From: Patescibacteria group bacterium
Lineage (GTDB): Bacteria > Patescibacteriota > Patescibacteriia > UBA9934
Length of the DNA: 64,000 bases
Assembly: GCA_041659765.1 (NCBI GenBank)
Contig: JBAZXR010000001.1
Span: forward strand, 595,338 to 659,337
Direction of reading: 5' to 3'
Shown here: piece by piece, positions 1,793-43,460 of the stretch
Layout: the number at the start of each line of letters is the position of its first letter
Position numbering within the stretch: position 1 is the first letter of the stretch
Notes under the pieces: generated by a model
What the model was told of the DNA's origin: nothing
The model's database searches: none
The model's input: the letters and a program-made list of their open reading frames with translations, nothing else
Program-made: the position numbers and the translations under genes

Positions 1793-1799
1793 AACCAAA

Positions 1800-1822
1800 G
1801 CGAGCCACCCGGCTCGTTTTGT
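1800..1822 (+). terminator. hairpin plus T-tract after nusG
   Basis: GAGCC-ACCC-GGCTC followed by GTTTTGTATT. Confidence 0.45.
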
Positions 1823-1845
1823 ATTACCGAGTATAATGAGGACAT

Positions 1846-2253: not shown

Positions 2254-2260
2254 AAAAATC

Positions 2261-2287
2261 GAGCCACGCCCCTATGGGGCGTGGCTC
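2261..2287 (+). terminator. perfect 12-bp GC-rich hairpin (terminator/attenuator) upstream of rplK
   Basis: GAGCCACGCCCC-TAT-GGGGCGTGGCTC, preceded by an A-run and followed by a T-rich stretch. Confidence 0.5.
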
Positions 2288-2393
2288 TTGAGTATATTTG
2301 ACATTTTTCGCAAATAACCGCACTATTCCGCTCGTAATTCACGAGGTAGTCGCTCGGGTAAATTCCCGGGAATCTACTATAAAAACACTCGTT

Positions 2394-2819
2394 ATGGCCA
2401 AGAAGATCAAGGCTATTATCAAGGTTCAGGCAATTGGTGGTGCAGCTACTCCGGCCCCGCCGCTTGGTCCAGTGCTCGGTCAGCAGGGTATTAACATCCA
2501 GGCTTTCGTCCAGGAATTCAATGCGAAGACCCAGGACCGCCGTGGAGAAACTGTGCCAGCCCTCATCACTATTTATGATGATCGCTCGTTCTCCTTCATC
2601 CTGAAGACCGCTCCGGCTTCAGACATGATCAAGAAGATTCTGAACCTCAAGGCAGGTTCTGGAAAGCCATTGACCGAGAAAGTCGGCAAGCTAACTAAGG
2701 CTCAGCTCCGCGATATCGCTGAGCGCAAGATGCCAGACTTGAACACCAAGGATGTAGACGCGGCCATGAAGATCATCGCTGGGACTGCACGTCAGATGGG
2801 AGTGGATGTAGAGGCGTAA
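2394..2819 (+). CDS. rplK: 50S ribosomal protein L11
   Basis: MAKKIKAIIKVQAIGGAATPAPPLGPVLGQQGINIQAFVQEFNAKT... is the canonical L11 N-terminus. The start was chosen at the internal MAKK, not the longer ORF start at 2298. Confidence 0.95.
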   Translation: MAKKIKAIIKVQAIGGAATPAPPLGPVLGQQGINIQAFVQEFNAKTQDRRGETVPALITIYDDRSFSFILKTAPASDMIKKILNLKAGSGKPLTEKVGKLTKAQLRDIAERKMPDLNTKDVDAAMKIIAGTARQMGVDVEA

Positions 2820-2888
2820 GTGATAAAGTTATAAAGTTGTAAAGTAATAAAGTGGGAGCCCAAAAGGCATTAAAACCACACCAAACAT

Positions 2889-3572
2889 ATGCACGGTAAA
2901 CGATTCACAGAATTGAAAACGACGGTTGAAAAGAAACTCTACAACGTAAAGGACGCCGTTGATCTCGTCAAAAAGGACGCGACCGCCAAGTTCGATGAAA
3001 CTGTTGAGTTGCACTTCAACCTCGGGATTGATCCAAAGATGGGCGACCAGCTCATCCGCGGTACCATCACCCTCCCTCACGGGACGGGTAAGAGCAAGAA
3101 AGTTGTTGCATTCGTTGACGCTGGCAACGAAGCAGCTGCCAAGGCTGCTGGTGCCGACATCATTGGTAACGAAGAGTACCTCGAGAACCTGGTAAAGACC
3201 GGCAAGATCGACTTCGACGTCGCCGTTGCTGTGCCAAGCATGATGCCTAAGCTGGCCAAGGCCGCTAAGATCCTCGGACCTCGCGGACTCATGCCTAACC
3301 CAAAGACGGACACTGTTGGACCAAACATCACCAAGATGGTGGAAGAACAGAAGGCTGGTAAGCTGTCTTTCAAGAATGACAACACCGCTAACGTCCACAT
3401 GATTGTGGGCAAGGCGTCATTCCCGGCCGAGAAGCTGGTCAGCAACGTGAACGCGGCTATGGACGCCATCAGCCGCGCCAAGCCACAGAGTGCCAAAGGT
3501 ATCTACATGAAGTCTGTCACCATGACTTCTACAATGGGACCCGCTGTGCGTTTGGAAGTTATCGCCTTATAA
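2889..3572 (+). CDS. rplA: 50S ribosomal protein L1
   Basis: 227 aa with GKRFTELKTTVEKKLYNVKDAVDLVKK...GIDPKMGDQLIRGTITLPHGTGK, typical of L1. Confidence 0.95.
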   Translation: MHGKRFTELKTTVEKKLYNVKDAVDLVKKDATAKFDETVELHFNLGIDPKMGDQLIRGTITLPHGTGKSKKVVAFVDAGNEAAAKAAGADIIGNEEYLENLVKTGKIDFDVAVAVPSMMPKLAKAAKILGPRGLMPNPKTDTVGPNITKMVEEQKAGKLSFKNDNTANVHMIVGKASFPAEKLVSNVNAAMDAISRAKPQSAKGIYMKSVTMTSTMGPAVRLEVIAL

Positions 3573-27557: not shown

Positions 27558-27805
27558 TCCTCTCTCGTGAATCTCCGCACCGACTCCCCTTTCAACTCAA
27601 CCATCTCTCCCCATTCTCGCAATGGTCGCGTAAAAAATGGCGCGTCGGGGTTTTCGTACAGAGGTTCGTACACCACCATCCACTCGGCGTCATTCGAGTG
27701 CTCGGCGAGCAAGATAATCCGATACAGGTCGCCTTTGTAATGGCGATACGTCTCCCCCGCCTTGGGGGCGTCGGGTGGGAGGGGTGGGACGGGGTCTCCT
27801 CTCAT
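27554..27805 (-). CDS. DUF1653 family protein
   Basis: YRHYKGDLYRIILLAEHSNDAEWMVVYEPLY....FTRPLREW is the DUF1653 signature. Its ATG overlaps the TGA of the upstream ORF (ATGA coupling). Confidence 0.75.
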   Translation of the reverse strand: MRGDPVPPLPPDAPKAGETYRHYKGDLYRIILLAEHSNDAEWMVVYEPLYENPDAPFFTRPLREWGEMVELKGESVRRFTRED

Positions 27806-29154
27806 AGTGCAGCGAGAAATTTCTTGTAGATCTCAACCATCGCCAGCGTGTCCAGTTCGCAATAGGCGAGCATGTCTTTGCGTAGCTGAGATTTTGTTTC
27901 GGGAGCCGCCCCGGGATCAGTCAGAACGGGCCAGCTAGCAGAGGCCGTGCCGCCTTCATGAATCGTCAGGGCGTCGTAGGAGAGCTCGGGACACATGACG
28001 GGGAGCACTTTTTTGAGTGATGCGCTGCCACCAAAACGGGAGTCGTCGTAATAGCCCTTACTCACGATAGTCTTCAAATCAAACATTCGCTCATTCAAAG
28101 ACGACATGAACGCGTCATACTTCGGCACCATGCGGGCGAGCTCGGCGTTGCGTGCAGCTTCAAAGGACATATGCCAAACGATCACACCCCCTGTGTCACC
28201 AACATGTCCCCGCAGGGATTCGACGAGAGTCGCGGCCGGGTCTGCGAACTCGTCCATCAAAAATTCGACGTGCTCGAGTCCCGCGTCCGGCGACGTGAGA
28301 ATATGAATCGAGTATTGAAACGGGCATTGCTGATACGGTCGATATCCGTCAAACGGCGGAATAGCGGGTCCGTAGGTTTCGTAGTCGAGGAAATAGAGGG
28401 GATACTCGAGCGCGTCCAGCTCTTCACGAATAGCCTCCTTGTTCACGGTCAGCCCAGGTTTCCCCGAAGACACAATGGGTTCTTCGACCTCGCCTTCGAT
28501 AGCCTGCAAGATACACGCCCGGAATTCGCATTTGGCCGGATCAGTACAATTTTTAATAATGTCGAGGTTCGGCTCAGTCCCCCATCCCAAAACCGCCAGC
28601 GCACGAGGGATTTCCTTCCTGCACAACGGCAACAATTCTTCGACCTCATGCGTCACGTCCGTCCGCGCGAACAATTTCTCTGGGTCGATTGCACCCTGCT
28701 TCACATACTGGTTGTCGATGTGGACGTGGACGGTTTTTCTAATCTTCAGCCCCGCATCTTCTAGACATACGCGCTGGAACGCCATATCCATCAAATGCTC
28801 CGGCTTCACCTGGGTAGTGCTTTTCACCTCTAGCAGATCTCAAGAATCATCGCTATTCTTTTTCAGGATATCCGCGCGACACGTGATCTCCCCGGCCATA
28901 AACGTTGGCTGGAGTAAAACCTTCGCACCGTCAGCGATAGCCTTCTCCGTATTCCCCGCCCCAGCCTTCCCAAAGCCCATCACGTTCACGCCCTTTGGGT
29001 ATAACTTCATCGCCCACGCATCCACCTCGTTGCCGGTTGTGAAAGCTCTCAATGTATCGGCGTCGAACGCCGGCGCAAGATCGGGGCGTTGCTTGAAGAG
29101 CCAAAGTTCGCACGAGCAACGAAGAAATTGGTTGAAGTTAGACTTCGAGATCAT
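27802..29154 (-). pseudogene. DUF2779-family (PD-(D/E)XK nuclease + RNase-H-like exonuclease) gene interrupted by a single in-frame TGA
   Basis: The N-part (28840-29154, MISKSNFNQFLRCSCELWLFKQ...RADILKKNSDDS*) and the C-part (27802-28827, DLLEVKSTTQ...LYFLDYETYGPAIPPFDG...) are in the same frame. A TGA at 28840-28842 falls between the D and the E-V-K of the nuclease motif. This is either a pseudogene or a sequencing error. Confidence 0.65.
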
Positions 29155-29164
29155 AGGCTATCGA

Positions 29165-29491
29165 TCAGTTACTCAACGATCGGAGATATTCTTTAACCGG
29201 CTCTGCTACTGTTTCTTCGCTTATGTTTCTCTCAATACAATAAGCCGTCTTGAACCAAACTGACAGATCCTTCGCTCCTCTACTCGAGTTACAACTTCCA
29301 CAGCAAATAGCGGCATAAAACTTCTCATTAAAAGGGCCGTCATTATGAAAGTGCTCAATAGTAGCTCTATCTTTGTAGTGATCCTTCGTGCCGATGCCAC
29401 CACCCATCACCTTGCGACAATAAACACACGCACTGTCTCTTGCGCGAATCTCCGCCTCGTCACTAGCTGAGATACCGTAGGTGTTGGACAT
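29165..29491 (-). CDS. HNH endonuclease-domain protein
   Basis: CVYCRK...DHYKDRATIEHFHNDG...NEKFYAAICCGSCNSSRG shows the C-x2-C ... H-x-H ... N ... C-x2-C HNH/zinc-finger pattern. It lies 11 nt upstream of DUF2779 on the same strand. Confidence 0.65.
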   Translation of the reverse strand: MSNTYGISASDEAEIRARDSACVYCRKVMGGGIGTKDHYKDRATIEHFHNDGPFNEKFYAAICCGSCNSSRGAKDLSVWFKTAYCIERNISEETVAEPVKEYLRSLSN

Positions 29492-29593: not shown

Positions 29594-30310
29594 CTATACA
29601 ACCTTTCCATTCAGATAATTCGTAGCGATGTCCCGAAAAACTGCCTCAGAGAGTTCGAAGTTGAATAAACGGAAAAGTTCATCTGTGACATTCCTCGCCA
29701 AAAGGAAGATCTCTTCATCATTATTCAATTTATCAATATTCGTAGTTAAAACCGTCTCACTCGTTTTCTCTCTAACGCATAAGTATTCCCAAAAAAGCAT
29801 TCGTGAAGAATTTGCCGACATCAGCCGTCTCCCTTGAAGTTGATGGTGACGAACGGTGATAGATACGGTGGTGTCGCCGGCGATCTTTGCTAAGCGAAAA
29901 AAATTACGGAGATACATCAATGTTTCCGTCACTCGAATGATACGCGTATCGAAAAATACCGCGTTCTCTTTACGCTCATCTTCAAAGATTGTTTTGTATA
30001 AATAGAAAGCCCCGATCGCGTTCCAAGCCCAAAAATCTAAACTTCCTCGGCTTTTGTCGAATACCCGAGCAACGTGACCATCACGATCAGGTTGCGGCTT
30101 AAACTCACTACGATCCAAAAATACAGCAATCGGCCAACCAAACGTCTTAATTGTAGAATCCTTTGCCCAAGTGAGGATATCTCTCTTTTGAAGGCTAAGC
30201 TCATTATCAAAAAATACCTCAACCTCCATAATCCCTCTTTTTTTATCCAACGGAATGGACCTAGCTTCAGTCTTCATTCTATCGAACCACTGTTTTTGAT
30301 TTGCGGTCAT
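29594..30310 (-). CDS. hypothetical protein (238 aa), candidate partner/antitoxin of the upstream RelA/SpoT-domain protein
   Basis: No recognisable domain and no HD motif. Its start overlaps the stop of the RelA/SpoT gene by 4 nt (ATGA). Confidence 0.5.
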   Translation of the reverse strand: MTANQKQWFDRMKTEARSIPLDKKRGIMEVEVFFDNELSLQKRDILTWAKDSTIKTFGWPIAVFLDRSEFKPQPDRDGHVARVFDKSRGSLDFWAWNAIGAFYLYKTIFEDERKENAVFFDTRIIRVTETLMYLRNFFRLAKIAGDTTVSITVRHHQLQGRRLMSANSSRMLFWEYLCVREKTSETVLTTNIDKLNNDEEIFLLARNVTDELFRLFNFELSEAVFRDIATNYLNGKVV

Positions 30311-31071
30311 AAACCATTCTTTTTATCATCCTGCTCTCTAGCCTGCTTTTGTACAAGTTGCCACACCTTTTCACACCCCCTATGAATCAAAGAAATTGCG
30401 TCGCTCAGGTCCTTGGAGTCACCTTTCTCGTCTCTGCCATATAGATATTTCCTATCTTGCACTGCCCAGGCATCACCCAAAACCGTTCTAAGTTGAATTT
30501 CACAATGCAAATCACGCGCGATTCGGTCGTATCTCATTGTCTTGGTTACAGTAAAATGGATTGCGTCATAAAACGGACTTGATCGTCTATCCAGTGTAGC
30601 AGTGTCAGTTTTATTGTTAGTCAATCCTAAAGGAGGTTGATTCCTCATTGGAGTCTTAGTGTCGAATACACCATGTTCATCTTTCGATGTTTTTACACAC
30701 TTACCCTCAAGGCGATATGCCTTCAATTCATTGTCTAATCGGTCAGCAAATTTCCAGAGATCGTCTGCACAATTCAACGTAACCCTTACCCCTGCTATGT
30801 CTTTAAAAGAAAATAGACTTTTATACTTTTTCTTCCCAGAGTTTTTATTCCCATCATTATAATTCTCTAAAATCTTACCGATGTCTTTTATATTCTTTCT
30901 AGCGCCGATTGTCTCCACATCGATTCCAGCCTCCTCACACTCCTCACAGATCTGGTTTACAAACCGTAGAATATTTCTTTGCAACTTTAAATACACAGGA
31001 GCCCAAACCACATATTCCTCTCTAATCTTATCCTCAGCCTTCATAAAACCCGCTTGGGTCAATCGCTCCAA
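30307..31071 (-). CDS. RelA/SpoT-domain nucleotidyltransferase (small alarmone synthetase-like; possible toxSAS)
   Basis: FKDIAGVRVTLNCADDL and HCEIQLRTVLGDAWAVQDRKYLYG match the (p)ppGpp-synthetase fold motifs (D-x-A-G-x-R ... EIQ(I/L)RT). 254 aa. Overlaps the 3' end of the hsdM-S gene by 13 nt. Confidence 0.7.
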   Translation of the reverse strand: MERLTQAGFMKAEDKIREEYVVWAPVYLKLQRNILRFVNQICEECEEAGIDVETIGARKNIKDIGKILENYNDGNKNSGKKKYKSLFSFKDIAGVRVTLNCADDLWKFADRLDNELKAYRLEGKCVKTSKDEHGVFDTKTPMRNQPPLGLTNNKTDTATLDRRSSPFYDAIHFTVTKTMRYDRIARDLHCEIQLRTVLGDAWAVQDRKYLYGRDEKGDSKDLSDAISLIHRGCEKVWQLVQKQAREQDDKKNGL

Positions 31072-33482
31072 AGCTTCGCGATCGTTTCTTTAGTTTTTTG
31101 CTCGTAAATCTCAATCAGTTTCTTGGCAGATTCCATGAGCACACGCTCAGCCTCGATTTTTTCCACTATTTGTTTTTGGATGACAAGAGGTGGAAGAGGG
31201 ATTATTACATTTCTAACGATCTCGGAATTAAGATTTCTAACTACCCCACCCGTAGCGGCGTTCTCGAATTGTTCCACCACAATATCTGAACTCAGAATGT
31301 AGTACAGAAAATCTTTTCCGATCTTCTTAGCGTCTTCGGTTAAGCGCAACCAACCGTCATGAATATATCCGTCAATTTTCATTATATATGGACGCCCAAA
31401 ACTCATTGAGTTTGAAAGTACAAAATCACCAACAACGACTTTACGAGATTTTTCTGCGCCCTCCTTTGTCACTCTCTCCGCCGTATGAGTAATATATTTA
31501 TCAGCATTTTTTGTATCCCCAATTTTTACCCAATTAAATCCATCTGAGCTCTCTGTTATAAACTTATCTATCGGGCGCGGCGATGCCCCTCTTTCGATTT
31601 TACAAACTTCGCTGATTTTTACCTTCTCCCACTCTAAACCGATGTCAATTTTTGGTTTCCAATTTTGAGCGATTTGTTTCGCGCCAGCTATGATACCTGC
31701 GTAGCCGCTCAACTCCGCCACGATTTGCTCTTGAAATTCGAGGGAAGGAAGAGGAATCTTGAATTTAGAATATTGAGATATCCAGTATCGCTTGTGCTCA
31801 CCGGGAGTAAACGGGATATTCTGCATTACGTAATAGACATAGCGTATGTTCGCCAACTCTTTTTTTGTGTGTAGTATCTTCATTGCGGAAGACTTCACCT
31901 TGAACGGAAAATCGACAAATTTAGTTGCGGTTGTAAAATCATCAAATATTATCACTGGCAACCCCTCACGAAAAATACCCGTCGTCTCGTTGGTGTGGCC
32001 CAATACAAACGTCTTCCCTGCAGTGAGAACGGGGGTCAGATATTCATCTTTATAATCAACGGATTCGACCAAATACTTAGTGGGCTGCTCGTAGTCCAGA
32101 ACCTCGCCCAATTCTACCATCGGCCATTTTACGTTCGAGTGATCCATAGCGACCCGATATCGATCCGCGGAGAGATTGTAATCATCATTCTTCGCTATGT
32201 CCGTTTTTTCTACATAAATAACGTGCGCATCTTGAGCTTTCTTTCCCTTGGTCCATTCTCTCAAGATATTGACGGATGCAGGTAGATCGTTCTTGCCGAT
32301 GGGTCTACGAGTAGCACCGAGGTCGAATCCATCGTTTTCTATCTTAATAAATACTATTTCATTGAGCGTTTTGGCCAAAGTCACGTCAAAGAAAAGGATG
32401 CTTGTTTTGACGCCGGCGTATGGATTAAATACACCACCGGGAAGACTCACGACAGCAAAAAGACCATCTTCTACCAGATTCTTTCTTAGTTGTTTATACG
32501 CGCTACCCGACTGAAAGATGACCCCTTCTGGCACAATCACGCCCGCCCGGCCGCCTGGTCGCAAGTGGCTCATGATGTAATCGACGAAAAGCACCTCCGC
32601 ACGGTTAGATTGAACTCCAAATTTAGTATGCGGCTTAATCCCGCCTTTTGGAGACATGAATGGTGGGTTAGCTAAGATCACATCGAACTTATCGTTCCAA
32701 CGCTCGTCGCTGGAAAGAGAGTCATACTGGAAAATCTTTGGATTCTTAAATTGGTGGAGGTATGTATTTACCTGGGCAATACGAACCATTCCAGGATCTA
32801 TATCGTAACCCTCAAAATTATTCATCAGCTTGCGCTTCTCGTCTGGAGTAAGCGGTTTCTCTTTCTTTTCTGGGTCATCCTTACCATCGTGTTGCTCTAA
32901 AATGTGCCTATACGAGCTCACCAAAAATCCACCCGTTCCACAGGCAGGATCGAGGACCTTATCATCTTTGGTTGGGTTAACTACATCTACAATGAAATCG
33001 ATAATGTGACGCGGCGTGCGAAACTGGCCGGCATCACCCTGGCTAGACATGATCGAAAGAAGGTATTCGTATGCGTTACCAAGTTCTTCGGAATGCGAAT
33101 AATCAAAATAGTTAATTTCATTCAAAAACAAACCGAGAACTTCAGGCGATCTGTATGGCAAAAAAGCGGACTTAAAGATTCCACGAAATAATTCTGGTAG
33201 CTGTTTCGCCTCAGAAAACTTCAGAAGCGCTTCAGAATAGAGATTCATGCGCTCCTGGTTGCCCATACGTTGATCCATGAGGCGCGTCCAAGCGTAACGC
33301 TCGAGCTCACCCACGAAGAAGGACGGATCTCCGCCAGCCTTAATAGCAGCCTGATCCATGTCATCCATGAACTTATAGATAAGTGCGTTGGTGATCTGGT
33401 CAATTTGAGATGTTGGATTTGGCACTACGCCTACCAAAACCTGGCGAGCAGCATCAATGTGGCGTTTTGTTTCGGTATTCAT
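31059..33482 (-). CDS. hsdM: type I restriction-modification fused methyltransferase-specificity protein (HsdM-HsdS fusion)
   Basis: N-terminal N6-adenine MTase (FRTPRHIIDFIVDVV...VLDPACGTGGFLV; ILANPPF) is followed by two target-recognition modules. Each module ends in an HsdS conserved spacer (IPLPSLEFQEQIVAELS and IIPLPPLVIQKQIVEKIEAE). 807 aa. Confidence 0.85.
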   Translation of the reverse strand: MNTETKRHIDAARQVLVGVVPNPTSQIDQITNALIYKFMDDMDQAAIKAGGDPSFFVGELERYAWTRLMDQRMGNQERMNLYSEALLKFSEAKQLPELFRGIFKSAFLPYRSPEVLGLFLNEINYFDYSHSEELGNAYEYLLSIMSSQGDAGQFRTPRHIIDFIVDVVNPTKDDKVLDPACGTGGFLVSSYRHILEQHDGKDDPEKKEKPLTPDEKRKLMNNFEGYDIDPGMVRIAQVNTYLHQFKNPKIFQYDSLSSDERWNDKFDVILANPPFMSPKGGIKPHTKFGVQSNRAEVLFVDYIMSHLRPGGRAGVIVPEGVIFQSGSAYKQLRKNLVEDGLFAVVSLPGGVFNPYAGVKTSILFFDVTLAKTLNEIVFIKIENDGFDLGATRRPIGKNDLPASVNILREWTKGKKAQDAHVIYVEKTDIAKNDDYNLSADRYRVAMDHSNVKWPMVELGEVLDYEQPTKYLVESVDYKDEYLTPVLTAGKTFVLGHTNETTGIFREGLPVIIFDDFTTATKFVDFPFKVKSSAMKILHTKKELANIRYVYYVMQNIPFTPGEHKRYWISQYSKFKIPLPSLEFQEQIVAELSGYAGIIAGAKQIAQNWKPKIDIGLEWEKVKISEVCKIERGASPRPIDKFITESSDGFNWVKIGDTKNADKYITHTAERVTKEGAEKSRKVVVGDFVLSNSMSFGRPYIMKIDGYIHDGWLRLTEDAKKIGKDFLYYILSSDIVVEQFENAATGGVVRNLNSEIVRNVIIPLPPLVIQKQIVEKIEAERVLMESAKKLIEIYEQKTKETIAKLWSD

Positions 33483-33484
33483 AC

Positions 33485-36052
33485 TTATCCTAAATTGGTT
33501 AGCTGATAAGCGTAGTCACGGACATATTGCGGAACTGTAGTTTTGAACCCGTTAAGTTTTTGATAGTCATCGAAATCAAATGAACCACGAACATTAAATT
33601 CGGCCGGCTTGTTCTGCTTTACAATGTCGCGAACCTCTTCGTCCACAATATACGCCTTAAAGAAGTTTTTGGTTGGTTGGTAGTGTTCCTGGTCTACTTC
33701 ATAAATATCCATGAACTTCTGCCACTCTGACTCCAGAACGTCATCCTTCATCTCGAATGTATCTTTTTCACCAAATGCTACCTGCAAAAACTCTCGAACG
33801 GTGATCCGGCGATCAACACCGAAAATTTTACGGATCTTATCAAGGTTAAGGAAGTATTTTGGCTTGTCGAAAATCTGCTTTTTCGCAAAATCCTCGGCGC
33901 CTTCGGTGTCGCCATTACTCCAGAGATTCTTAAGCGTTTCATTGCCTAGCACATCTTCCTCAACAGCACGCTTAAAACCTTCACGATCAATTCGCATGCC
34001 TTCCTCACCGACTGGAGTCTCCGAAATAGTGGCCAGCTCGTCAGAAGTGGCCAAATCCACGATCCCCTTAAATATCTTCTTGCCATTCTCATCTACAAAT
34101 TCTCCCTGCGCTAATTCCTTACCCGTTGCGGTCTTTTTCTCCTCTGCCTTCTTAACTACCGGAAGCTTGATCTTCTCGTCGTACTTGAATTCTTTTTCAA
34201 AATACTCGCACGTGGCAAAGAAATCGAAAAACTTAAACTTGTCTTTAGCTACCGCGATAACATCACTGTCTTTATAATCCTTATGTTCAAACAAATATGT
34301 TCTAGTTCCACGTCCCTTTATCTGAACAAAATCTGCCGGACTAAAAACCGGACGCATTAGACCAATGTTGAGAAGATCCTGACAGTCGTATCCCGTGGTC
34401 ATCATGCCGACAGTAACAACAACGCGTGTCTTGCCCGTATCATATCCCTCCGGCTCCTTTGCATGACCGCCGAGGCGGTTATTCGCAAAATTAATGGTCA
34501 TTTGTTGTGCATCTTGCACCTGAGAAGTAACCTGCATGGCAAAATCAGATTCTCCGTATTGTTTTGGCCACTTTTCAAACGCTAATCTATTGAGAATATT
34601 AGTGACTCGCGCTGCATGTTTCTGTGAGACACAAAAGACAATGGACTTGCCGAATAATTGAACGCCCAATTTTTCTGCCACTGGATCAAAGATGCCGTTA
34701 TCAACAAATGCCTTACACATGGCAATATTCGTTTCTTCGTTGAAAAACTTTCGCTCGTAGTGCTTTGCGCTATATGTCTCGTCGACCGTTTCTCCACTTT
34801 CAGCTGCAGTGTGAACGCTATACCCTTTTTCCGACAACAACTCAGTCGTGATTTCCGTTCTTGCGTCTACTATCACGGGATTAATCAAATACCCATCTTT
34901 TACACCAGACAACAAATCATATCTAAATGTAGGCTCGCCGGATTCGCAGCCGAAGGTCTTGTACGTGCTTAAAAGCACACGTCGCTCATATTCACGCTGA
35001 GTATCCGCGTCCTCAGCGTCTACGCCCTTTAAGTAGTCCTTCGGAGTCGCGGTTAAACCGAGCTTATAGCCAACAAAGTATTCGAATACTGCCCGACTAT
35101 TACCACCAATTGAACGGTGAGCTTCGTCAGAAATCACTAGCTCAAAATCTGTGGGTGAAAATTCTTTCTTATACCGATCACCTGCCATGAAAGATTGAAT
35201 GGTCGAAACCACTACACTCGCATTCTGCCAAGAATCACGGCTCTCTTTATAGATAACACTTCTAAAATCCTTTCCAAGATACTGAGAAAATGCCTTCTGC
35301 GCCTGGTCCTCAAGCTCGATTCTGTCCACTAAGAATAAAACACGACGAGCATTGCCAGATTTCAGGAAAAGCTTAATAACCGCCGCAGAAATAAGTGTCT
35401 TGCCGGTACCCGTCGCCATTTCAAACAAGAATCTTTGTTTTCCCTCCTTGGCTGACTCTTGCAACGCCTTGATTGCCTGTACTTGATACGGACGAAGCTG
35501 TTTAAGATTATTATTTCTCAAAAATTCGCTTCGCGTTTCCGCATCCTTAAATGCTGGATCCTTAAAAAATCCAGGCATCTGCGTATCTACTACATAGTTC
35601 CCATCAACTAACGTTTTTGCTAGTTCGTCAGGATTCGGGGTGTATTTCTCATATTGTGTAATGGAATCCTGAGTGGGAAAACGAGAAATAGTATCAGGAT
35701 TTCCTTGCTTTGTATCCCAAAAATAGTGAATATTCCCATTTGAAAGAATGATAAATCTCGCTCCAACATTCCGAGCATAATTCCTCGCCTGTTCTTTTGC
35801 TGACAAAGGATCAACAGACTCTTTTTTAGCCTCAACCACAACTAATGGCCTACCGTCTTTATCTAAAAGAAGAAAATCTATAAAACCATGAGCCTCATAC
35901 TCAAAATCATCGCCAAGATCAGCGTATTTCACGCCTGGCTCCAGCTGAATATTCGCCCTGCCCTTCTTCTTATCATCCTCAAACCGCCAGCCTGATTCTT
36001 CGAGGAGTTTGTTAATCTTTATTCTAGCCTTAGCCTCTTTTGCATTTGCCAT
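33485..36052 (-). CDS. hsdR: type I restriction enzyme R subunit (N-terminal PD-(D/E)XK nuclease + SF2 helicase)
   Basis: Nuclease motif GFIDFLLLDKDGRPLVVVEAKK. Helicase motifs ATGTGKT, VISDEAHRS and QIKGRGTR. The stop overlaps the hsdM-S start (ATGA). Confidence 0.85.
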   Translation of the reverse strand: MANAKEAKARIKINKLLEESGWRFEDDKKKGRANIQLEPGVKYADLGDDFEYEAHGFIDFLLLDKDGRPLVVVEAKKESVDPLSAKEQARNYARNVGARFIILSNGNIHYFWDTKQGNPDTISRFPTQDSITQYEKYTPNPDELAKTLVDGNYVVDTQMPGFFKDPAFKDAETRSEFLRNNNLKQLRPYQVQAIKALQESAKEGKQRFLFEMATGTGKTLISAAVIKLFLKSGNARRVLFLVDRIELEDQAQKAFSQYLGKDFRSVIYKESRDSWQNASVVVSTIQSFMAGDRYKKEFSPTDFELVISDEAHRSIGGNSRAVFEYFVGYKLGLTATPKDYLKGVDAEDADTQREYERRVLLSTYKTFGCESGEPTFRYDLLSGVKDGYLINPVIVDARTEITTELLSEKGYSVHTAAESGETVDETYSAKHYERKFFNEETNIAMCKAFVDNGIFDPVAEKLGVQLFGKSIVFCVSQKHAARVTNILNRLAFEKWPKQYGESDFAMQVTSQVQDAQQMTINFANNRLGGHAKEPEGYDTGKTRVVVTVGMMTTGYDCQDLLNIGLMRPVFSPADFVQIKGRGTRTYLFEHKDYKDSDVIAVAKDKFKFFDFFATCEYFEKEFKYDEKIKLPVVKKAEEKKTATGKELAQGEFVDENGKKIFKGIVDLATSDELATISETPVGEEGMRIDREGFKRAVEEDVLGNETLKNLWSNGDTEGAEDFAKKQIFDKPKYFLNLDKIRKIFGVDRRITVREFLQVAFGEKDTFEMKDDVLESEWQKFMDIYEVDQEHYQPTKNFFKAYIVDEEVRDIVKQNKPAEFNVRGSFDFDDYQKLNGFKTTVPQYVRDYAYQLTNLG

Positions 36053-36699: not shown

Positions 36700-38256
36700 T
36701 TACTGCGTCTTCTCACCTGTGAGTAAAAAGTCTAACTCGTTGTCAAAGATTCTTTTAAATTCCGATCGTGGATCCGCATGATCAATAATCTGTTTTGCAA
36801 CTAGATGGGCGTATTTATCTTTAATTATTCCCTCAGGATAATTAATCCTGTGATCTACGCTGCATCCAGAAAGTTCAGCATCGAAATCATTCTTCATTTC
36901 ATTATCGTAGTAATCTTCAATCTGCTTCCTTGATAATACAACGAAACGTTTGGCCGCGATATCCACGTTCATCTTCTGCATCTTCTTGTATTCGGGAGTA
37001 TTTTGGTATTCAGGATCAGTGGGGCTATCAATGATAATGCTGTATTTATCGTAGTAAAATGGGTTGCACTTAAGGAGTGTCTGCTCGGTGTTGAACCTTC
37101 GAATGTGTTCTGCAAAAAGTGGTACATTATTTGCCCCTGCGGCTGAAATAAACCCCCAATTCTTCACGATCCCTTTCTTCTTTAATGCGTCAAGCAATTT
37201 TTGAAGACTAGCCTCCTCGAGAAGACAATAATTTTCAACGTAGCCAAAATCCGTCTCGTCAGCCCCCACCATCTTTGCAGCAATATAGTTAACGCTCTGA
37301 TCATCGAACCCGTCGTTGCCTTTCCCCGGATTACCGTGCTCGTCTACGGTTTGTCCGCCATCAATTAAATATACCTTTTGATCTCTTGGAAAACTTCCGG
37401 ATTTCGAAACAATAAATGGCGAATGTGTAGTTACGAAAAACATTGCGTTATTGACTGATGATAAATCGTTTAAGATTTTTGGAACCAATTTTTGATACTC
37501 AGGGTGAAGAGATGTTTCCGGTTCCTCGATGCAGATGATGTGAAAATAATTTGGGACCTCCGGTCTATCGTTCCTTTTGTAGGACTCCAAATCATTGATC
37601 AATTTCTGCAAATTGAAATAAATCGAAATAAGGCGGATTTGTCCAGACGACAATGCCTTGAGATTAATTCTAGAGCCATCTTCAAGAAGTAACTGAATTG
37701 ATTCAACGCCCGCTGCCGATCTCATTACGTTCGTCACGGGAGAGTTGGTGTATCGATGTCTATTAATGAAATCTCTTAGATCACGTTCTAAAATGAAACT
37801 CGGCAACTTATCAAGATTGATCGCGAGACCCTCCTTGTGGGGCAACGTTCGTCTTGTGTCACTGAAATCGAAATATCGGGCAATATCTCCTAGGGGGAGA
37901 GTTGTGGCCCCTCCTTCAGCCTTCTGCATAACAGCTTTCCCATTTTTAATGAGTGAGGGATCCAGATGCACGTTTACTGTATTGCCTATTCCTTCCGGCT
38001 CGTCATATGAATACGAGAAGTTGAAGTCTGGATGGAATACTTCGAGAGGATCGCCAAAGGCCTCGTCGATGTTGGCGTCACTACGATTGTAATATTGGGA
38101 ATTAAAAGCCATCATGATCAATTCGAGAACCGAGCTTTTTCCTGCGCCGTTTTTTCCAATTAAATAATTGACCTTCTTTAATTTTGTAATTTCAAATGAT
38201 GAAGCCTTGATATTTTTATACCCAGAGATACTTAATTTGCTCAACATAAACTCCAT
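36700..38256 (-). CDS. ABC-type AAA ATPase of the OLD/AAA_15-21 family with a possible C-terminal Toprim-like domain (putative anti-phage defence)
   Basis: Walker A LIGKNGAGKSSVLE, ABC signature-like ALSSGQIRLISIY, Walker B IICIEEPETSLHP, H-loop VTTHSP. The C-terminal ~200 aa carry Toprim-like acidic residues (CLLEEAS ... IIIDSPTDPE). Confidence 0.6.
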   Translation of the reverse strand: MEFMLSKLSISGYKNIKASSFEITKLKKVNYLIGKNGAGKSSVLELIMMAFNSQYYNRSDANIDEAFGDPLEVFHPDFNFSYSYDEPEGIGNTVNVHLDPSLIKNGKAVMQKAEGGATTLPLGDIARYFDFSDTRRTLPHKEGLAINLDKLPSFILERDLRDFINRHRYTNSPVTNVMRSAAGVESIQLLLEDGSRINLKALSSGQIRLISIYFNLQKLINDLESYKRNDRPEVPNYFHIICIEEPETSLHPEYQKLVPKILNDLSSVNNAMFFVTTHSPFIVSKSGSFPRDQKVYLIDGGQTVDEHGNPGKGNDGFDDQSVNYIAAKMVGADETDFGYVENYCLLEEASLQKLLDALKKKGIVKNWGFISAAGANNVPLFAEHIRRFNTEQTLLKCNPFYYDKYSIIIDSPTDPEYQNTPEYKKMQKMNVDIAAKRFVVLSRKQIEDYYDNEMKNDFDAELSGCSVDHRINYPEGIIKDKYAHLVAKQIIDHADPRSEFKRIFDNELDFLLTGEKTQ

Positions 38257-38514: not shown

Positions 38515-39054
38515 ATGCCCCTCCCTCTCTTCACCTTAAAACGCCACCCCCGCTCCCGAGGCGTTCGTATTCGTATTCGTATTGGGGCTGATGGGCAGTG
38601 TACGGTCACGGCGCATAAACGAGTCCCCGTCTGGATGATCAACCAATTTGTAGAGCAAAAGTCCGCTTGGATCCAAGAACACGTCGCCAAAGCCAAAAGC
38701 AGGCCGCAGAGTTTGCTTCATGGGGGTACGAAGGCGGATTACACTCGCCTAAAAGTACGCGCGCTTGAGCTGGCGCATGCAAGGCTCGAATATTTCAATG
38801 CAGTCTACAAGCTCACCTACAAAAAAGTTTCTATTCGCAATCAAAAAACCCGCTGGGGCAGTTGTACAAGTAATGGGGCGTTGAGTTTTAATTATCGGAT
38901 CGTGCAACTGTCGGCGGAACAGGTTGATTACATCGTTGTTCATGAACTCTGCCACCTGGCGCAGATGAATCACTCGGTGAAGTTTTGGAGGTTGGTTGAG
39001 AAAACTATTCCAGACCACAAACGACTCCGAGCGACGATTAGGAACGCAAAGTAA
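38515..39054 (+). CDS. DUF45/YgjP-family zinc metallohydrolase (M48/SprT-like HExxH)
   Basis: VVHELCHLAQMNHS (HExxH) and a typical DUF45 N-terminus (RIRIRIGADGQCTVTAHKRVP...WI). Proteins of this family are often encoded beside type I R-M systems. Contains an internal (CGTATT)x3 microsatellite. Confidence 0.75.
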   Translation: MPLPLFTLKRHPRSRGVRIRIRIGADGQCTVTAHKRVPVWMINQFVEQKSAWIQEHVAKAKSRPQSLLHGGTKADYTRLKVRALELAHARLEYFNAVYKLTYKKVSIRNQKTRWGSCTSNGALSFNYRIVQLSAEQVDYIVVHELCHLAQMNHSVKFWRLVEKTIPDHKRLRATIRNAK

Positions 39055-39085
39055 AACCCCGCCATTACAGCGGGGATTTTTACTT
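39055..39085. terminator. bidirectional terminator
   Basis: AAAACCCCGC-CATTACAG-CGGGGATTTTTACTTTTT. Confidence 0.65.
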
Positions 39086-39358
39086 TTTCTTTTTTGCATT
39101 CACGAACTGCAGCGCGATGGCGAGGAGCGTTGGGATGGTAAAACCGATCAACAGCGGCCATGCGACAACCCATTCTTCGTGCGGATAACAGTATGCAGGA
39201 ACGTCGCCGGCGAATAACGCAACCTTACAGATCGCGCTGCCTTCTACAAGCATTTTTCTTACGAGCAGCCCCGAGGGCACTGCAATAAGCCACGCGCCCA
39301 AACAAAGGCCAAGAAGAAAACCTCGATGCTTTATTAGTAAATTCCCGAGGTTCTTCAT
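39080..39358 (-). CDS. small membrane protein (92 aa)
   Basis: Two predicted TM helices and a C-terminal KKKK. Confidence 0.4.
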   Translation of the reverse strand: MKNLGNLLIKHRGFLLGLCLGAWLIAVPSGLLVRKMLVEGSAICKVALFAGDVPAYCYPHEEWVVAWPLLIGFTIPTLLAIALQFVNAKKKK

Positions 39359-39360
39359 AG

Positions 39361-39678
39361 TTACATCACATCCTCATCCTCCCCCTTATACGTCTTTTTT
39401 TCTTTCACCGTGTAACCGTCTCTTGATTTGAGTGCTTCCATGATTCGGCGGACACCGTCAGCAATACCGGTGATGAGAGCGACGTTGCCGTCAAACTTCC
39501 GCTTCATGCCCATGATGGAGTTTTCGAGGTCGTCGAGTTTTACTTTTACTTCGTCAACAAGTCCGTGCAGGCGCTTGAGTAGTCCTGCAGCCTGGAAGAG
39601 AAGCCAGCAAAGAAAAGCAGTAAACCACAATGCACAAAACGCAAGCACTATGAATAGAATGTCTTGGGTTCCCAGCAT
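39361..39678 (-). CDS. small membrane/coiled-coil protein (DUF948-like architecture)
   Basis: N-terminal TM (ILFIVLAFCALWFTAFLCWLLF) followed by a coiled-coil. Confidence 0.45.
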   Translation of the reverse strand: MLGTQDILFIVLAFCALWFTAFLCWLLFQAAGLLKRLHGLVDEVKVKLDDLENSIMGMKRKFDGNVALITGIADGVRRIMEALKSRDGYTVKEKKTYKGEDEDVM

Positions 39679-39696
39679 ATTAACTAAATAATACCA

Positions 39697-40314
39697 CTAC
39701 TTAATCGGCGTTGTCCGCAAATCCGGGGTAACCTCCAAACACGCATCACGACATTGTAAAGGAATTTCCCTTTTTAACATAACATCGACCTGATCCCTAG
39801 TATAGATGTACTCATTGTTCGAGTCCTCGAGTCGGCTCTCGATACGTTGATCCAAAAGACGCTGAAACTCGATCGACTCCGGCGGAGGATTCAGTGGCGC
39901 GAATCGCAATAAGCATACTGATCCAATCCCCAACAAAATTAAAACACAAAACAAAATCATTCTTACGTCAGACAAACCTTCGATTTTCTTGATCAAAACA
40001 AGATCCATCACCAGAATAAACAACGTCATCGCACAAAAAATTAATACAATAAACAAACCCGCACTCCAGGCGTCCGCGATTCGACCAAAAATCTGAATAC
40101 TGACTGAAACAAAAGTAAAAAGTGCGACAAAAACTCCCAGTGCTTCAATCGACCTTATCTGCCTCTCATCCGCGCGCTTATCGTAGTCATCGATCTTGGC
40201 AACAAGGTCCGCTCGGAGAGTTTGAAAATCGTTCAAGGAAGGGACGTTGCCGGATCCAGCCTGGGATGCGACACCACGCTGAGGGTACGCGCTGCCTATT
40301 CCAAAGTTGGCCAT
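39697..40314 (-). CDS. hypothetical membrane protein (205 aa)
   Basis: Central pair of TM helices. No family recognised. Confidence 0.45.
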   Translation of the reverse strand: MANFGIGSAYPQRGVASQAGSGNVPSLNDFQTLRADLVAKIDDYDKRADERQIRSIEALGVFVALFTFVSVSIQIFGRIADAWSAGLFIVLIFCAMTLFILVMDLVLIKKIEGLSDVRMILFCVLILLGIGSVCLLRFAPLNPPPESIEFQRLLDQRIESRLEDSNNEYIYTRDQVDVMLKREIPLQCRDACLEVTPDLRTTPIK

Positions 40315-41024
40315 AATGTCTTTTCAATCTCTTTAAGCTTAAAACTTTCTTTGGATTGCTCTATAAACTTTCTTATTGAAAAATTAGAAAATTTGGACGA
40401 CAAATTCTCCGTCGGATTTGAGTTAAAATCGCGGGTGATCTGGATGCCCGCCACCTCAGAGGGTTCGCCCGAAAGTCTCGCACTCATCCTTTCCAAAGTA
40501 ACGAAATTATTTACATTAAAGTCGAACTCATCAAATTTAACGCTCCTGACATACCTCACAAAAACTTCAACAAACGCGGATTCTGATTCAATGCCGAATA
40601 GATCTCTAAATCCCGGAACAATTGCCTGCTCAATAACTTTATCCTGACTTTGTTCCGGAATAAAAAAACGAGAAACGAACCCAACCCGTTTGATCGGCAG
40701 AGATTCGGCTCCGCAAAAAGCAATCAATTTCTCGGACAATTCGGTGATTGTCTTCATCTTAGCCTCAAACGGCTGCCTCCCTTCCCCGGCCACAAATAAA
40801 TCAATTCGCCCTCGCGCAATATTGCAACCGTATATGCCATCTTTGGAACTCAGCTGAACCACCGGGATATCGCTAAGCTCAATAGGGATAGGAAGCGCTA
40901 TCAGATTCCCATCCATTATTCCACCCAGTGCTTCATTAAGACGCTGATAACGATCTTCCGGGCGATCTATTAAACGATCTAGAAATAATGCCAGCTGGGT
41001 GTTAATGAGAATCTCATCCTTCAT
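40296..41024 (-). CDS. hypothetical protein (242 aa)
   Basis: Overlaps the downstream gene by 19 nt. Lies 16 nt downstream of the pheT stop on the same strand. Confidence 0.5.
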   Translation of the reverse strand: MKDEILINTQLALFLDRLIDRPEDRYQRLNEALGGIMDGNLIALPIPIELSDIPVVQLSSKDGIYGCNIARGRIDLFVAGEGRQPFEAKMKTITELSEKLIAFCGAESLPIKRVGFVSRFFIPEQSQDKVIEQAIVPGFRDLFGIESESAFVEVFVRYVRSVKFDEFDFNVNNFVTLERMSARLSGEPSEVAGIQITRDFNSNPTENLSSKFSNFSIRKFIEQSKESFKLKEIEKTLWPTLE

Positions 41025-41039: not shown

Positions 41040-43460
41040 CTACCCCCTCAACGCCGCACCGAATTTGCCTTCGAGAGCCGTCGTGATGCGCTTAATTTCA
41101 TTTTCTACCTCGTCGCTCGTCAGTGTTCGATCATTAGCCGAAAAGGTCAGAGAAAGGGTCAACGACTTCTTACCGGACTCGACTCCTGCGCCGCGGTAAA
41201 TGTCAGTCAGCGAGATGTCGGTGAGTAACGGGCCAGCGACAGCGGCGGCGATTTCGTCGTAGGCGGTGCGTTCGTTCAACATGAAAGACAAGTCTCGTCG
41301 AGAAGCTGGGAAGGCACTGAGGAGTTCGTAGCGGAGAGCTTTTTTGAGATGCGGCAGAAGGGCTTCGAGGTCTAGGTCGATAAGGAAGACCTGCTTCTCA
41401 AGTCCGAAAGCACGTTCGTAGGCAGGCGCAACTTCCCCCATCATGCCAACAAGGGTGCGGACGCCGTTAATCTCGGCATGAATGTCCGCAGCGCGGCTGG
41501 GGTGATAGCGTGGAGTGTCCTGTACGCGGGTGAGCGAGAAGGCGACGCCGGTTTCTTTGCCGAGGCGTTCGAGCGTGCCCTTGAGGCGCATAAAAGCGGC
41601 CTCGGAGTTGTCGTAGCCGTAGTCGGCGATAACTAAACGATACTGTTCGAGAGGTAGGTTGCTGGTTGCGGGTTGCAGGTTAGAGAGGAGATGCACGCGA
41701 GAGAGTTCGAAAATACGAGCCGAAGGAGAGGTAGCCTGGTTCTTTTCGATATCCCGAAGAATCGAGGGAACTAGCGTGGGGCGCAGGTAGCTCAAGTCTT
41801 CGGCAAGCGGGTTGAGCAGCTTAACTGCATCAAGCGGGGTGATGCCGTAGCGTTCCAAGTCCTTGCCGTCAATGAGCGAAACGCCGAAGAACTCGGTATA
41901 ACCAAGAGATGCAAGAACGCGCTTCAGTTTGCGTTCCCAAACGACTGCAACGTCATTAACTGCTGGAGGAGGCGTCACGGCAGGCAACGTGCTCGGCATG
42001 TTGTGGTAGCCGTAGATGCGCGCAACTTCTTCGGTGAGATCAACCTCGGACTCAATGTCGTGATCACGCCAGAATGGAACGGTGGCCGTGATGATGTGGC
42101 CTTTCTTCGTCAGCATGAAGCCGAGCTTCGTCAGAATCTTCTCGATCTGTTCGTCCGAAATATCAACGCCGATTCTTGAGCGAATCTTCTTCGTAGACGT
42201 CTTGTACACGCGAGGTTTATACGCCTTCTCTTTTTCGTGGCGCGTGTCTGACAGTCCTTCGACGGTACCGCCAGCGAGTTGTTGTACAAGCTCAAGTGCG
42301 CGCGCCATGGCAATTGGCAACGCCTCCGTGGACAAACCTTTTTCGAAGACTAACTGAGAGTCAGAGTAAAGGTTCAGGTCGCGTGCGGTTCTGCGAACAG
42401 AGACGGCATCAAAAGCGGCTGCCTCGAAAACAACCGTCGTCGTTTCGTTCGTGGTCGAGCTCGCTTCCCCGCCCATGACACCAGCCACGGCCATCGGTCC
42501 TTCTTGGTCAGCAATGATGAGGTTTGTCTTTGAAAGTTCGTATTCCTTGCCATCGAGGGCTTTGAGCTTCTCCCCCTTCTGCGCGTCACGAATCACAATC
42601 TGATTACCGCGGATTTTGCTTGCGTCAAAGGCGTGCATCGGCTGGCCGAGCTCATGCAAGACCAAGTTTGTGATGTCAACAATGTTATTAATCGGCCGAT
42701 GACCAGCGAGCAACAATTTCTTCTGAAGCCACCACGGTGATGGGCCGACTTTTACGTTTTTTACCACGGCTGCCATGTAGCGTGGACACTTTTTGGAGTT
42801 GATCGAGACCCTGAAACCCTGAACCTCCTCCGACTCCTCCTTGGAAAGGAGGAGAGGAGCGAAAGTGAACTGACCATCGGTCGAGGCTGAACCTTCGCGG
42901 GCGAGACCGACGATGCTCATGCAGTCGGGGCGATTTGTAGTTACCTCGATATCAAAAATGGTGTCATTGAGTTCAAGTGCTTCGACAATCGGCGTGCCGG
43001 CTTTTGCGTCGGTTACTTTCGAAAGATCCCAAATCTCATGTTCGCCAGCGGGAATCTTGTCGAAACCGACTTCGGCTGCCGCGCAAATCATGCCAATGCT
43101 CTTTACTCCACGGATTTCAACCTCGGCGAGCGTGACCAGTTCGCCCTCACCATGCCACTTAACCTTTGCGCCCGGGAGCGCTACGAACACGCGCTGGCCA
43201 ACTTCAAGATTCGATCCGCCACACACAACTTCGACAGTCTTCTCGCCAATATCCGTCACCGCAATGCGAAGTTTGTTCGCATTGGGGTGCGCTTTGATCT
43301 CCTTGATAACGCCGACCACCATGTGTTCAAATTTGCCCCAAAGAGCGTCGATTTTTTCGACGGACATGGACTTGAGCGAGAGTTCTTTAGCAAACTCATC
43401 CGCAGAAAGCGTGGTGTTCAAGTATTCGCGGATCCAATTGTAAGAGGCGAGGATGTTCAT
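41040..43460 (-). CDS. pheT: phenylalanyl-tRNA synthetase beta subunit
   Basis: 806 aa with an N-terminal tRNA-binding domain (MNILASYNWIREYL...), B3/4, B5 and a C-terminal FDX-ACB domain. Confidence 0.92.
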   Translation of the reverse strand: MNILASYNWIREYLNTTLSADEFAKELSLKSMSVEKIDALWGKFEHMVVGVIKEIKAHPNANKLRIAVTDIGEKTVEVVCGGSNLEVGQRVFVALPGAKVKWHGEGELVTLAEVEIRGVKSIGMICAAAEVGFDKIPAGEHEIWDLSKVTDAKAGTPIVEALELNDTIFDIEVTTNRPDCMSIVGLAREGSASTDGQFTFAPLLLSKEESEEVQGFRVSINSKKCPRYMAAVVKNVKVGPSPWWLQKKLLLAGHRPINNIVDITNLVLHELGQPMHAFDASKIRGNQIVIRDAQKGEKLKALDGKEYELSKTNLIIADQEGPMAVAGVMGGEASSTTNETTTVVFEAAAFDAVSVRRTARDLNLYSDSQLVFEKGLSTEALPIAMARALELVQQLAGGTVEGLSDTRHEKEKAYKPRVYKTSTKKIRSRIGVDISDEQIEKILTKLGFMLTKKGHIITATVPFWRDHDIESEVDLTEEVARIYGYHNMPSTLPAVTPPPAVNDVAVVWERKLKRVLASLGYTEFFGVSLIDGKDLERYGITPLDAVKLLNPLAEDLSYLRPTLVPSILRDIEKNQATSPSARIFELSRVHLLSNLQPATSNLPLEQYRLVIADYGYDNSEAAFMRLKGTLERLGKETGVAFSLTRVQDTPRYHPSRAADIHAEINGVRTLVGMMGEVAPAYERAFGLEKQVFLIDLDLEALLPHLKKALRYELLSAFPASRRDLSFMLNERTAYDEIAAAVAGPLLTDISLTDIYRGAGVESGKKSLTLSLTFSANDRTLTSDEVENEIKRITTALEGKFGAALRG

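Follow-up and report, generated by a model that had tools for sequence, protein, structure and literature searches.

In a 64,000-nucleotide (nt) stretch of a Patescibacteria group bacterium genome (contig JBAZXR010000001.1, positions 595,338 to 659,337; the whole stretch is referred to as the window), two overlapping genes downstream of type I restriction-modification (R-M) genes encode a RelA/SpoT-type synthetase and a partner of 238 amino acids (aa), a stand-alone copy of a widespread domain that is called domain X here. With moderate confidence, the pair is read as one functional unit, namely the split bicistronic form of a two-part immune protein with the synthetase as effector and X as regulatory switch. 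This reading draws on the gene order and translational coupling, the co-conservation of both parts, their fusion in relatives, the intact catalytic residues, the range of architectures containing X and the R-M neighbourhoods. Because the C-terminal domain X is fused to the same synthetase and also to many unrelated enzyme domains, it has more in common with an exchangeable module for regulation or sensing, of the CapRel kind, than with a classical antitoxin, and it is most likely a new module of this kind in anti-phage defence. The original prediction, made from the sequence of the window, had proposed a toxic small alarmone synthetase (toxSAS) with a new class of antitoxin. The conserved partner, the intact enzyme and the lack of a match to any known antitoxin class agree with this proposal, whereas the idea of a simple cognate antitoxin is not supported for a domain that is so widely shared and fused.

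Conservation of the pair

The pair comprises the following features.

30307-31044, minus strand: RelA/SpoT synthetase gene (245 aa, ATG start), with the frame open to a TTG at 31071 (254 aa); open reading frame (ORF) and Pfam RelA_SpoT match
29594-30310, minus strand: partner gene, 238 aa, stand-alone copy of domain X; ORF without library match
30307-30310, minus strand: ATGA stop/start overlap of the synthetase and partner genes; read in the sequence

Both ORFs were found at the positions given by the original prediction, which had used the TTG start for the first (30307-31071) and placed the second at 29594-30310. The translational coupling it described is also present, as the junction reads ...AAT GGT TTA TGA and is overlapped by ATG ACC, resulting in a 4-nt ATGA overlap.

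Only nine relatives of the synthetase were returned by a word-indexed search of 5.8 billion sequences. For separately encoded relatives, a gene of about 240 aa lies directly downstream in 7/7 distinct loci with a contig reaching far enough, five of which stem from protein look-ups and two (L096 and L100) from a metagenome scan. Where read, the junctions range from a 1-nt overlap to a 9-nt gap. The downstream gene is close to the window partner in L001/L002 and L008, with profile E-values of about 1e-99, and more distant in L003-6, L009/10 and L011 (E-values of 4e-9 to 6e-7 in a set of only ten sequences) and in L096 and L100 (2.5e-5 to 5.4e-5 among metagenome ORFs). Motif equivalents are found between the distant partners and the window partner, with RGWDYPH for FGWPI and EYWRF..GQF.HYFAMRED for DYW....G.FYL.K.IFED. 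The concern raised in the original prediction that the downstream ORF might not be conserved with the synthetase did not materialise, as the partner is present wherever the contig is long enough, and every such locus has the conserved two-gene or fused architecture known from toxSAS systems. Since the flanking genes vary among the split loci (RtcB/LigT, NUDIX/AAA_33 and DUF2130), it is the pair and not the R-M context that is conserved.

Nearly all of the approximately 40 synthetase relatives are either followed by a gene of the partner family or carry the partner domain fused in a protein of about 470 aa. The synthetase profile spans the whole N-terminus of these X proteins with E-values of 1e-52 to 4e-76, and therefore the window pair is the split form of a RelA/SpoT-X protein. 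About 28 relatives have this fusion: 14 cluster representatives, nine metagenome loci and five GTDB genomes, the latter from a gammaproteobacterium, two Saccharibacteria, Flavipsychrobacter and Moraniibacteria. The window X also scores slightly higher against RelA-linked X domains (median of 140 bits) than against other X domains (120-125 bits). The exceptions are two to three close synthetase relatives with a different C-terminal region (L106/L107 and L109). These belong to a large set of metagenomic RelA/SpoT proteins of 290-513 aa (L106/L107 at 1591-3132, L109 and L110-L128) with C-terminal extensions that match neither X nor CapRel, and their sequences suggest that synthetases with other regulatory domains have radiated more widely. 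An assignment of the distant proteins of about 370 aa to CapRel was ruled out, as the one tested (L110) matched the CapRel structure 7ztb with an E-value of only 0.0095.

Two further observations concern the surroundings of the split loci. In L003-L006 and L094-L095, which represent a single lineage (about 236-1396 and 124-660 of L003/L005), the RelA and X-like pair lies just downstream of genes for the RNA ligase RtcB and the 2',3'-phosphoesterase LigT. As RNA-end repair enzymes, these would suggestively fit a tRNA 3'-end target, if that is the target. On the contig of L001, a gene with a SocA/Panacea antitoxin domain (554-1033, minus strand) is located about 6 kb from the pair, which indicates a neighbourhood rich in toxin-antitoxin (TA) or defence genes.

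Catalytic potential and classification of the synthetase

All homologues begin at the position of Met10 in the 254-aa numbering, and the NCBI record of the window synthetase has 245 aa. For this reason, the ATG at 31044 and not the TTG at 31071 is the likely start. This ATG lies 14 nt past the hsdM-S stop codon, so that the 13-nt overlap with hsdM-S reported in the original prediction exists for the TTG start alone and is probably an artefact of choosing it.

The synthetase carries the motifs DIAGVRV and EIQLRTVLGDAWA, on which the original prediction was based, as well as FYDAIH and EIQLRT. RelA_SpoT (PF04607) is the sole Pfam family in the 254 aa, with 27.1 bits compared to a cut-off of 27, whereas the relatives reach 43-51 bits. 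No HD, TGS or ACT domain was found in these 254 aa with Pfam, in line with a single-domain RelA/SpoT homologue (RSH) and with the earlier statement that hydrolase and regulatory domains are missing. Eleven residues are the same in all of 40 distinct members of the family, whether split or fused (254-aa numbering): R58, K62, D91, R96, D104, Y168, H172, E191, Q193, T196 and W237. Among them are the Asp that binds Mg, the Tyr of the G-loop and the Glu of the EIQxRT motif. Because of this invariance, the enzyme is considered to be under selection for catalysis, and it looks active. The recurrence of the pair in other contigs, in conjunction with the 11 invariant catalytic and structural residues, shows that the feature is no chance ORF.

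Structures of RelP and RelQ are the best matches of the synthetase family profile in the PDB (E-values of 5.8e-12 to 1e-7, the former for RelP 6fgk). Of the toxSAS subfamilies named in the original prediction, the comparison covered CapRel, and CapRelSJ46 (7ztb) matched with an E-value of 2.7e-4. The AlphaFold2 model of the synthetase has a moderate overall predicted local distance difference test (pLDDT) score of 71 with a confident core, and its top Foldseek matches are again RelP/RelQ (E-value of 2e-7). Residues 139-166 before the G-loop form a poorly modelled insertion. Judged by its sequence, the protein belongs to the RSH synthetase superfamily and to the small alarmone synthetases (SAS) with a single domain. 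It is neither a housekeeping RelP/RelQ nor, given that the CapRelSJ46 match is weaker than those to RelP/RelQ, a close CapRel.

The proximity of RelP and RelQ, the closest solved relatives by both sequence and fold, is what could favour housekeeping alarmone synthesis, in which a small (p)ppGpp synthetase with a regulatory subunit would serve the stringent response of a reduced Patescibacteria genome. This explanation is highly improbable. The NCBIfam equivalog of YjbM/RelQ (NF053588) scores 17.6 bits on the synthetase, far under its cut-off of 320, and the clustering with housekeeping enzymes that the original prediction had regarded as damaging to its proposal is thus not seen. Moreover, relatives are few among the 5.8 billion sequences searched, the distribution over unrelated phyla is patchy, the pair lies within an R-M operon in an island of low GC content, and the partner domain is common to TIR, SEFIR and SIR2 proteins.

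Domain X as a shared C-terminal module

As stated in the original prediction, the partner has no recognisable domain, and no match was found in Pfam, NCBIfam or PADLOC. It is also not of the small alarmone hydrolase (SAH) type, since there is no match to SAH, Panacea or pseudo-zinc-finger antitoxins. A profile of X, however, detected 1,547 proteins with an E-value of at most 1e-3 among 1.84 billion cluster representatives, and 318 of these with at most 1e-30. When clustered at 50 % identity, the family has at least 1,547 clusters; for the SEFIR-X branch by itself, clustering at 90 % identity leaves about 1,590. X is nearly always C-terminal and follows N-terminal regions of up to about 500 aa. 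A literature search found no description of this domain, although its coverage was incomplete and an earlier description, for example in comparative-genomics surveys, is possible.

A Pfam domain census of 99 multi-domain X members shows the diversity of the N-terminal regions. The most frequent domains are TIR_2 (24/99), SEFIR and RelA_SpoT (15/99 each) and TIR (10/99), followed by ParA-like AAA_31 (4/99), Schlafen AlbA_2 (3/99) and Pkinase (2/99), while HipA, GGDEF, SIR2_2 and ThsB_TIR occur once each (1/99). X proteins of 390 aa have a deoxyribosyltransferase/TIR-like N-terminal domain, for which the matches are weak. The matches of X proteins in PADLOC (bSEFIR, PDC-S66, PDC-S33, PD-T4-6 and ThsB of Thoeris) are limited to the effector halves. 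The commonest fusion partner of close X relatives (P0012-P0044, L025, L085 and L088) is an N-terminal domain that spans about 150 aa and contains the motif NERPNCYLE(V/I)GYAMG. It has only sub-threshold matches, to nucleoside 2-deoxyribosyltransferase (NDT) and to the CAP12/Pycsar TIR domain, and its sequence may represent a distinct TIR/NDT-like family, possibly of NADases.

Of the two structure predictions suggested at the outset, that of X is the more confident one, with a pLDDT of 92.3 and a predicted template modelling score of 0.91. In the AlphaFold2 model, the domain has a two-layer alpha/beta fold, and a long helix runs through its centre. Foldseek returned nothing with an E-value of at most 1e-3 for this model, only weak matches to TBP-like folds and to the N-terminal domain of RnlA, and a search of the X profile against the PDB sequences gave no matches at an E-value of at most 10.

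Despite an overall identity of about 30 %, several residues are strongly conserved in 271 distinct X domains: E110 and E129 in 100 %, W94, R123, G58, P60 and G235 in 99 %, D92 in 97 %, R161 in 96 %, E29 in 95 %, and D111 and R126 in 94 %. The only clear departure of the window X from the consensus is residue 157, which is Gln where 97 % of the 271 members have Gly (HGGL to HHQL). An invariant charged set of this kind suggests that X binds a defined ligand, contains a catalytic site or works as a conserved conformational switch, and does not suggest a surface that diversifies against phage proteins.

This conservation bears on the possibility that X itself is an enzyme or effector, such as a hydrolase or nuclease, or a small-molecule receptor, and that the N-terminal TIR, GGDEF, RelA/SpoT and kinase domains make a nucleotide signal which acts on it. 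Two Glu residues identical in 271/271 domains, together with R123, D92, R161, D111 and R126, form a mix of acidic and basic residues that is typical of metal- and phosphate-binding sites, and GGDEF, TIR and RelA/SpoT domains are all able to make signalling nucleotides. Nevertheless, we consider this quite unlikely, as the HipA, Ser/Thr kinase, Schlafen and SIR2 partners do not generate signals, the fold searches with X returned neither a nuclease nor a hydrolase, and X in its two-gene form has no further output domain.

The architectures also affect the interpretation as a classical type II TA system, in which the synthetase would be constitutively toxic and neutralized by binding to X as its dedicated antitoxin, with the toxin being freed when X is degraded or not made. 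The tight bicistron with its ATGA overlap and the conserved pairing match this layout, which is the same as in validated toxSAS systems (PMC7229694). However, X is large and confidently folded, without the DNA-binding domain or disorder that labile antitoxins tend to have. Most relatives carry X and the enzyme in one covalent chain, which makes a release by selective degradation impossible, and the same domain accompanies many unrelated enzymes. A type II TA system is therefore unlikely.

Genomic context

X was found in Acidobacteriota, Proteobacteria, Chloroflexota, Omnitrophota, Patescibacteria, Myxococcota, Bdellovibrio, Bradyrhizobium, Cystobacter and one Methanosarcinales archaeon. In viral contigs, no relative of X or of the synthetase was found. 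In 7/80 GTDB loci, an X gene or a split pair of effector and X lies directly in or beside a restriction system. These loci are listed below, with brackets marking proteins that contain X or its effector part and MAG denoting a metagenome-assembled genome.

L019, Woesebacteria: hsdM..hsdS-[AlbA_2-X]-hsdR (type I)
L025, Omnitrophica: hsdR-hsdS-hsdM-[NDT-like-X] (type I)
L085, Aminicenantales: hsdS-[NDT-like-X]-hsdR-YgjP (type I)
L088, Bdellovibrio bacteriovorus Bd5: hsdR-hsdS-hsdM-[NDT/TIR-like, 177 aa]-[X, 227 aa], split like the window pair (type I)
L049, Moraniibacteria: [RelA-X]-Eco57I/TaqI_C methyltransferase (type IIG)
L073, deltaproteobacterial MAG: type IIG enzyme-[NDT-like]-[X]
L086, deltaproteobacterial MAG: PLD-SNF2 helicase-[NDT-like]-[X]

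Such same-strand R-M adjacency in about 9 % of the loci, from unrelated phyla, is, by informal estimate, far above that of a random gene.

The genes around the pair in the window have the following layout.

41040-43460: pheT, island border
39080-41024, minus strand: four consecutive ORFs (92, 105, 205 and 242 aa) without Pfam match, filling the rest of the low-GC island up to pheT
38515-39054, plus strand: YgjP-like metallopeptidase gene beside the R-M array
36700-38256, minus strand: AAA_15/AAA_21 ATPase, 518 aa, upstream of hsdR; PADLOC AriA, PtuA and GajA-like matches with E-values down to 9e-26
33485-36052, minus strand: HsdR, type I restriction subunit, 855 aa, first gene of the same-strand array; Pfam ResIII (6e-42) and HSDR_N, PADLOC REase_I (4.6e-56)
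31059-33482, minus strand: fused HsdM-S, 807 aa; Pfam N6_Mtase (2.2e-53) and Methylase_S (6.2e-21), PADLOC MTase_I and Specificity_I
29165-29491, minus strand: HNH/endonuclease-VII-like ORF, 108 aa, after a 102-nt gap behind the partner gene; weak PtuB matches (E-values of about 1e-3)
27802-29154, minus strand: DUF2779 protein, 341 aa, and a separate 104-aa ORF 12 nt upstream, island edge

On the minus strand, the gene order is hsdR, hsdM-S, synthetase, 238-aa partner and HNH-like ORF. HsdR, HsdM and HsdS functions, which a type I R-M system requires, are all found, with M and S in one ORF. The GC (guanine and cytosine) content between about 29 and 41 kb is 41-48 %, compared to 51-55 % in the flanks on either side, and the region is bounded by pheT and the DUF2779/DUF1653 genes. 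Due to this low GC content and position, the sequence of the region looks like an acquired island. The description of the pair as embedded in an R-M and defence array is therefore borne out by the HsdM-S and HsdR genes upstream and by the island itself. The pair and hsdM-S are probably part of the same operon. Promoter and terminator scans between 28.7 and 38.6 kb gave counts equal to those of shuffled controls and are uninformative for or against a single operon, and no tRNA gene was found in the window.

Several neighbouring features deserve mention in their own right. The fused HsdM-S has N6_Mtase at residues 132-445 followed by two specificity-domain stretches, an unusual single-chain form for type I. 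A gene that appears, judged by eye, to be of the same kind as the YgjP-like gene of the window follows hsdR in L085 (5777-6505), adjoining the X protein. The four ORFs without Pfam matches may be further defence or mobile-element genes, and the 104-aa ORF may be a detached N-terminal part of the DUF2779 protein, resulting from a frameshift or split. A Septu system consisting of a PtuA ATPase and a PtuB HNH protein was ruled out, as the R-M genes and the pair separate the ATPase from the HNH-like ORF by 7 kb. The HNH-like ORF was likewise ruled out as a part of the module, since each relative has other genes behind the pair.

Proposed mechanism and alternatives

A constant C-terminal module, swappable suicide-type N-terminal enzymes, occasional gene splitting and residence in defence islands or R-M operons are together the signature of immune proteins that act by abortive infection, either as a single chain or from two genes. 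From this we infer a mechanism in which the upstream product, a RelA/SpoT-type pyrophosphokinase, would be the effector, and X the regulatory switch of whichever effector it joins. Modelled on CapRel, X would bind the synthetase in the uninfected cell and hold the enzyme off. A cue linked to infection would then act on the conserved polar pocket of X or on the interface between X and the effector, thereby releasing the enzyme. The released, presumably toxic enzyme would transfer pyrophosphate from ATP to the tRNA 3' end or to a purine nucleotide, which are the targets of known toxSAS enzymes (PMC7229694, PMC11782079). Translation or metabolism, and with it phage production, would be halted as in abortive infection. 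The position at the end of a type I R-M operon suggests that this could be a second line of defence behind restriction.

Regulation in the opposite direction is the subject of another explanation, in which the synthetase alone would be inactive and harmless until X senses infection, binds and activates it. There is a precedent in PANGU type I, where the GRel synthetase Pag1B forms an inactive tetramer and pppGpp is made only once the YejK-like sensor Pag1A has bound to it, and where neither gene is toxic alone (bioRxiv 10.64898/2026.04.06.716658). The invariant charged residues of X, which suggest that a defined ligand is bound, are consistent with such licensing, and TIR and SEFIR effectors are commonly activated by sensor-driven assembly. 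In contrast, X is not YejK/NdpA-like, having neither a Pfam match nor a fold match, and a permanent cis fusion is easier to reconcile with autoinhibition that is relieved by a trigger. Licensing by X is a strong rival of the favoured reading, if somewhat doubtful.

For the favoured reading of the pair as a split effector and switch, several points have to be set on the other side. Direct binding of X to the synthetase is suggested by the fusions, and in PANGU the SAS is activated instead of inhibited by its partner, so that X may regulate in either direction (bioRxiv 10.64898/2026.04.06.716658). The window synthetase scores just at the Pfam threshold, and five of the split partners match the X profile weakly. 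The most conserved residues of X are charged (E110, E129, R123, D92 and R161), which would fit a ligand or catalytic site better than an interface for many effectors, so that X could be an enzyme or effector. Furthermore, most fused X proteins are found in ordinary neighbourhoods, for example L007.

If the favoured reading of an effector with its switch is correct, the range of toxSAS-type effectors would include Patescibacteria and further uncultured phyla, and their regulatory partner would resemble none of the antitoxins described so far. The novelty would be an effector-plus-sensor abortive-infection system of the toxSAS type, and its main value lies in exposing a large unannotated regulatory domain family. 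X would then be the common C-terminal half of many proteins that are labelled only as "TIR domain-containing protein", and would offer a way to study the activation of an entire class of abortive-infection proteins with a single chain. Their repeated occurrence within or beside R-M operons would constitute a testable link between restriction and suicide effectors. Relatives are available in the culturable hosts Bradyrhizobium sp. C9, Bdellovibrio bacteriovorus Bd5 and Cystobacter fuscus, so that experiments are feasible.

Comparison with known systems

Abortive-infection genes are known inside type I R-M operons, such as the anticodon nuclease PrrC in EcoprrI. The window pair shares with PrrC the position of a suicide-type effector inside or at the end of such an operon, which suggests a back-up when restriction fails. 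The synthetase is unrelated to PrrC, and the present data do not indicate control of the pair by the R-M system.

The arrangement of an N-terminal effector with an unannotated C-terminal half is shared with the single-gene bSEFIR defence system (Millman et al., bioRxiv 10.1101/2022.05.11.491447) and with TIR and SIR2 single-chain abortive-infection proteins, although the window locus has RelA/SpoT instead of SEFIR and the two parts are split. The PADLOC bSEFIR model matched 21/99 multi-domain X proteins with E-values down to 1.5e-73, and the ten examined reached 202-247 bits on the SEFIR domain. Coverage of X by this model was ruled out, since essentially the SEFIR part alone was matched (profile positions 35-203 of 412). 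In the profile search for this link, the validated protein of Bacillus sp. NIO-1130 was not among the 120 matches listed.

Panacea (PanA, DUF4065; PMC8832971), which has been called 'hyperpromiscuous', is similar in that a single partner domain has been joined in evolution to dozens of toxic domains that are unrelated to each other, toxSAS among them. However, there is no sequence relationship, as Pfam SocA_Panacea does not match X. In addition, X usually occurs as a C-terminal cis fusion, and TIR, SEFIR and NADase-type domains dominate among its effectors.

PANGU type I likewise consists of a two-gene defence operon with a SAS-type enzyme and a partner, which is a non-enzymatic sensor in PANGU (bioRxiv 10.64898/2026.04.06.716658). 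This sensor comes from a modular family whose members are combined with other effectors as well, and some of the operons are linked to R-M systems. Unlike the PANGU sensor, X has no NdpA/YejK Pfam match and is fused C-terminally to the effector in most relatives.

The bicistronic toxSAS systems FaRel2/ATfaRel2, PhRel2/ATphRel2 and FaRel/ATfaRel (PMC7229694, PMC11782079) have a SAS-like gene with intact catalytic motifs in a conserved, overlapping two-gene operon with an unrelated partner, as does the window pair. The difference is in the partner, as X is not a SAH hydrolase, a pseudo-zinc-finger, a Tis1-like or a Panacea protein.

For a RelA/SpoT effector, CapRel(SJ46) is the closest worked example (PMC9712102; PDB 7ZTB). 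X differs from the pseudo-zinc-finger domain of CapRel, which has about 100 aa, in being an alpha/beta domain of about 235 aa without similarity to it, and in being common to many effectors other than RSH proteins. Nevertheless, both families combine an N-terminal RelA/SpoT toxSAS-type synthetase with a C-terminal regulatory domain, exist as one polypeptide as well as two adjacent genes, and are found in the context of defence islands.

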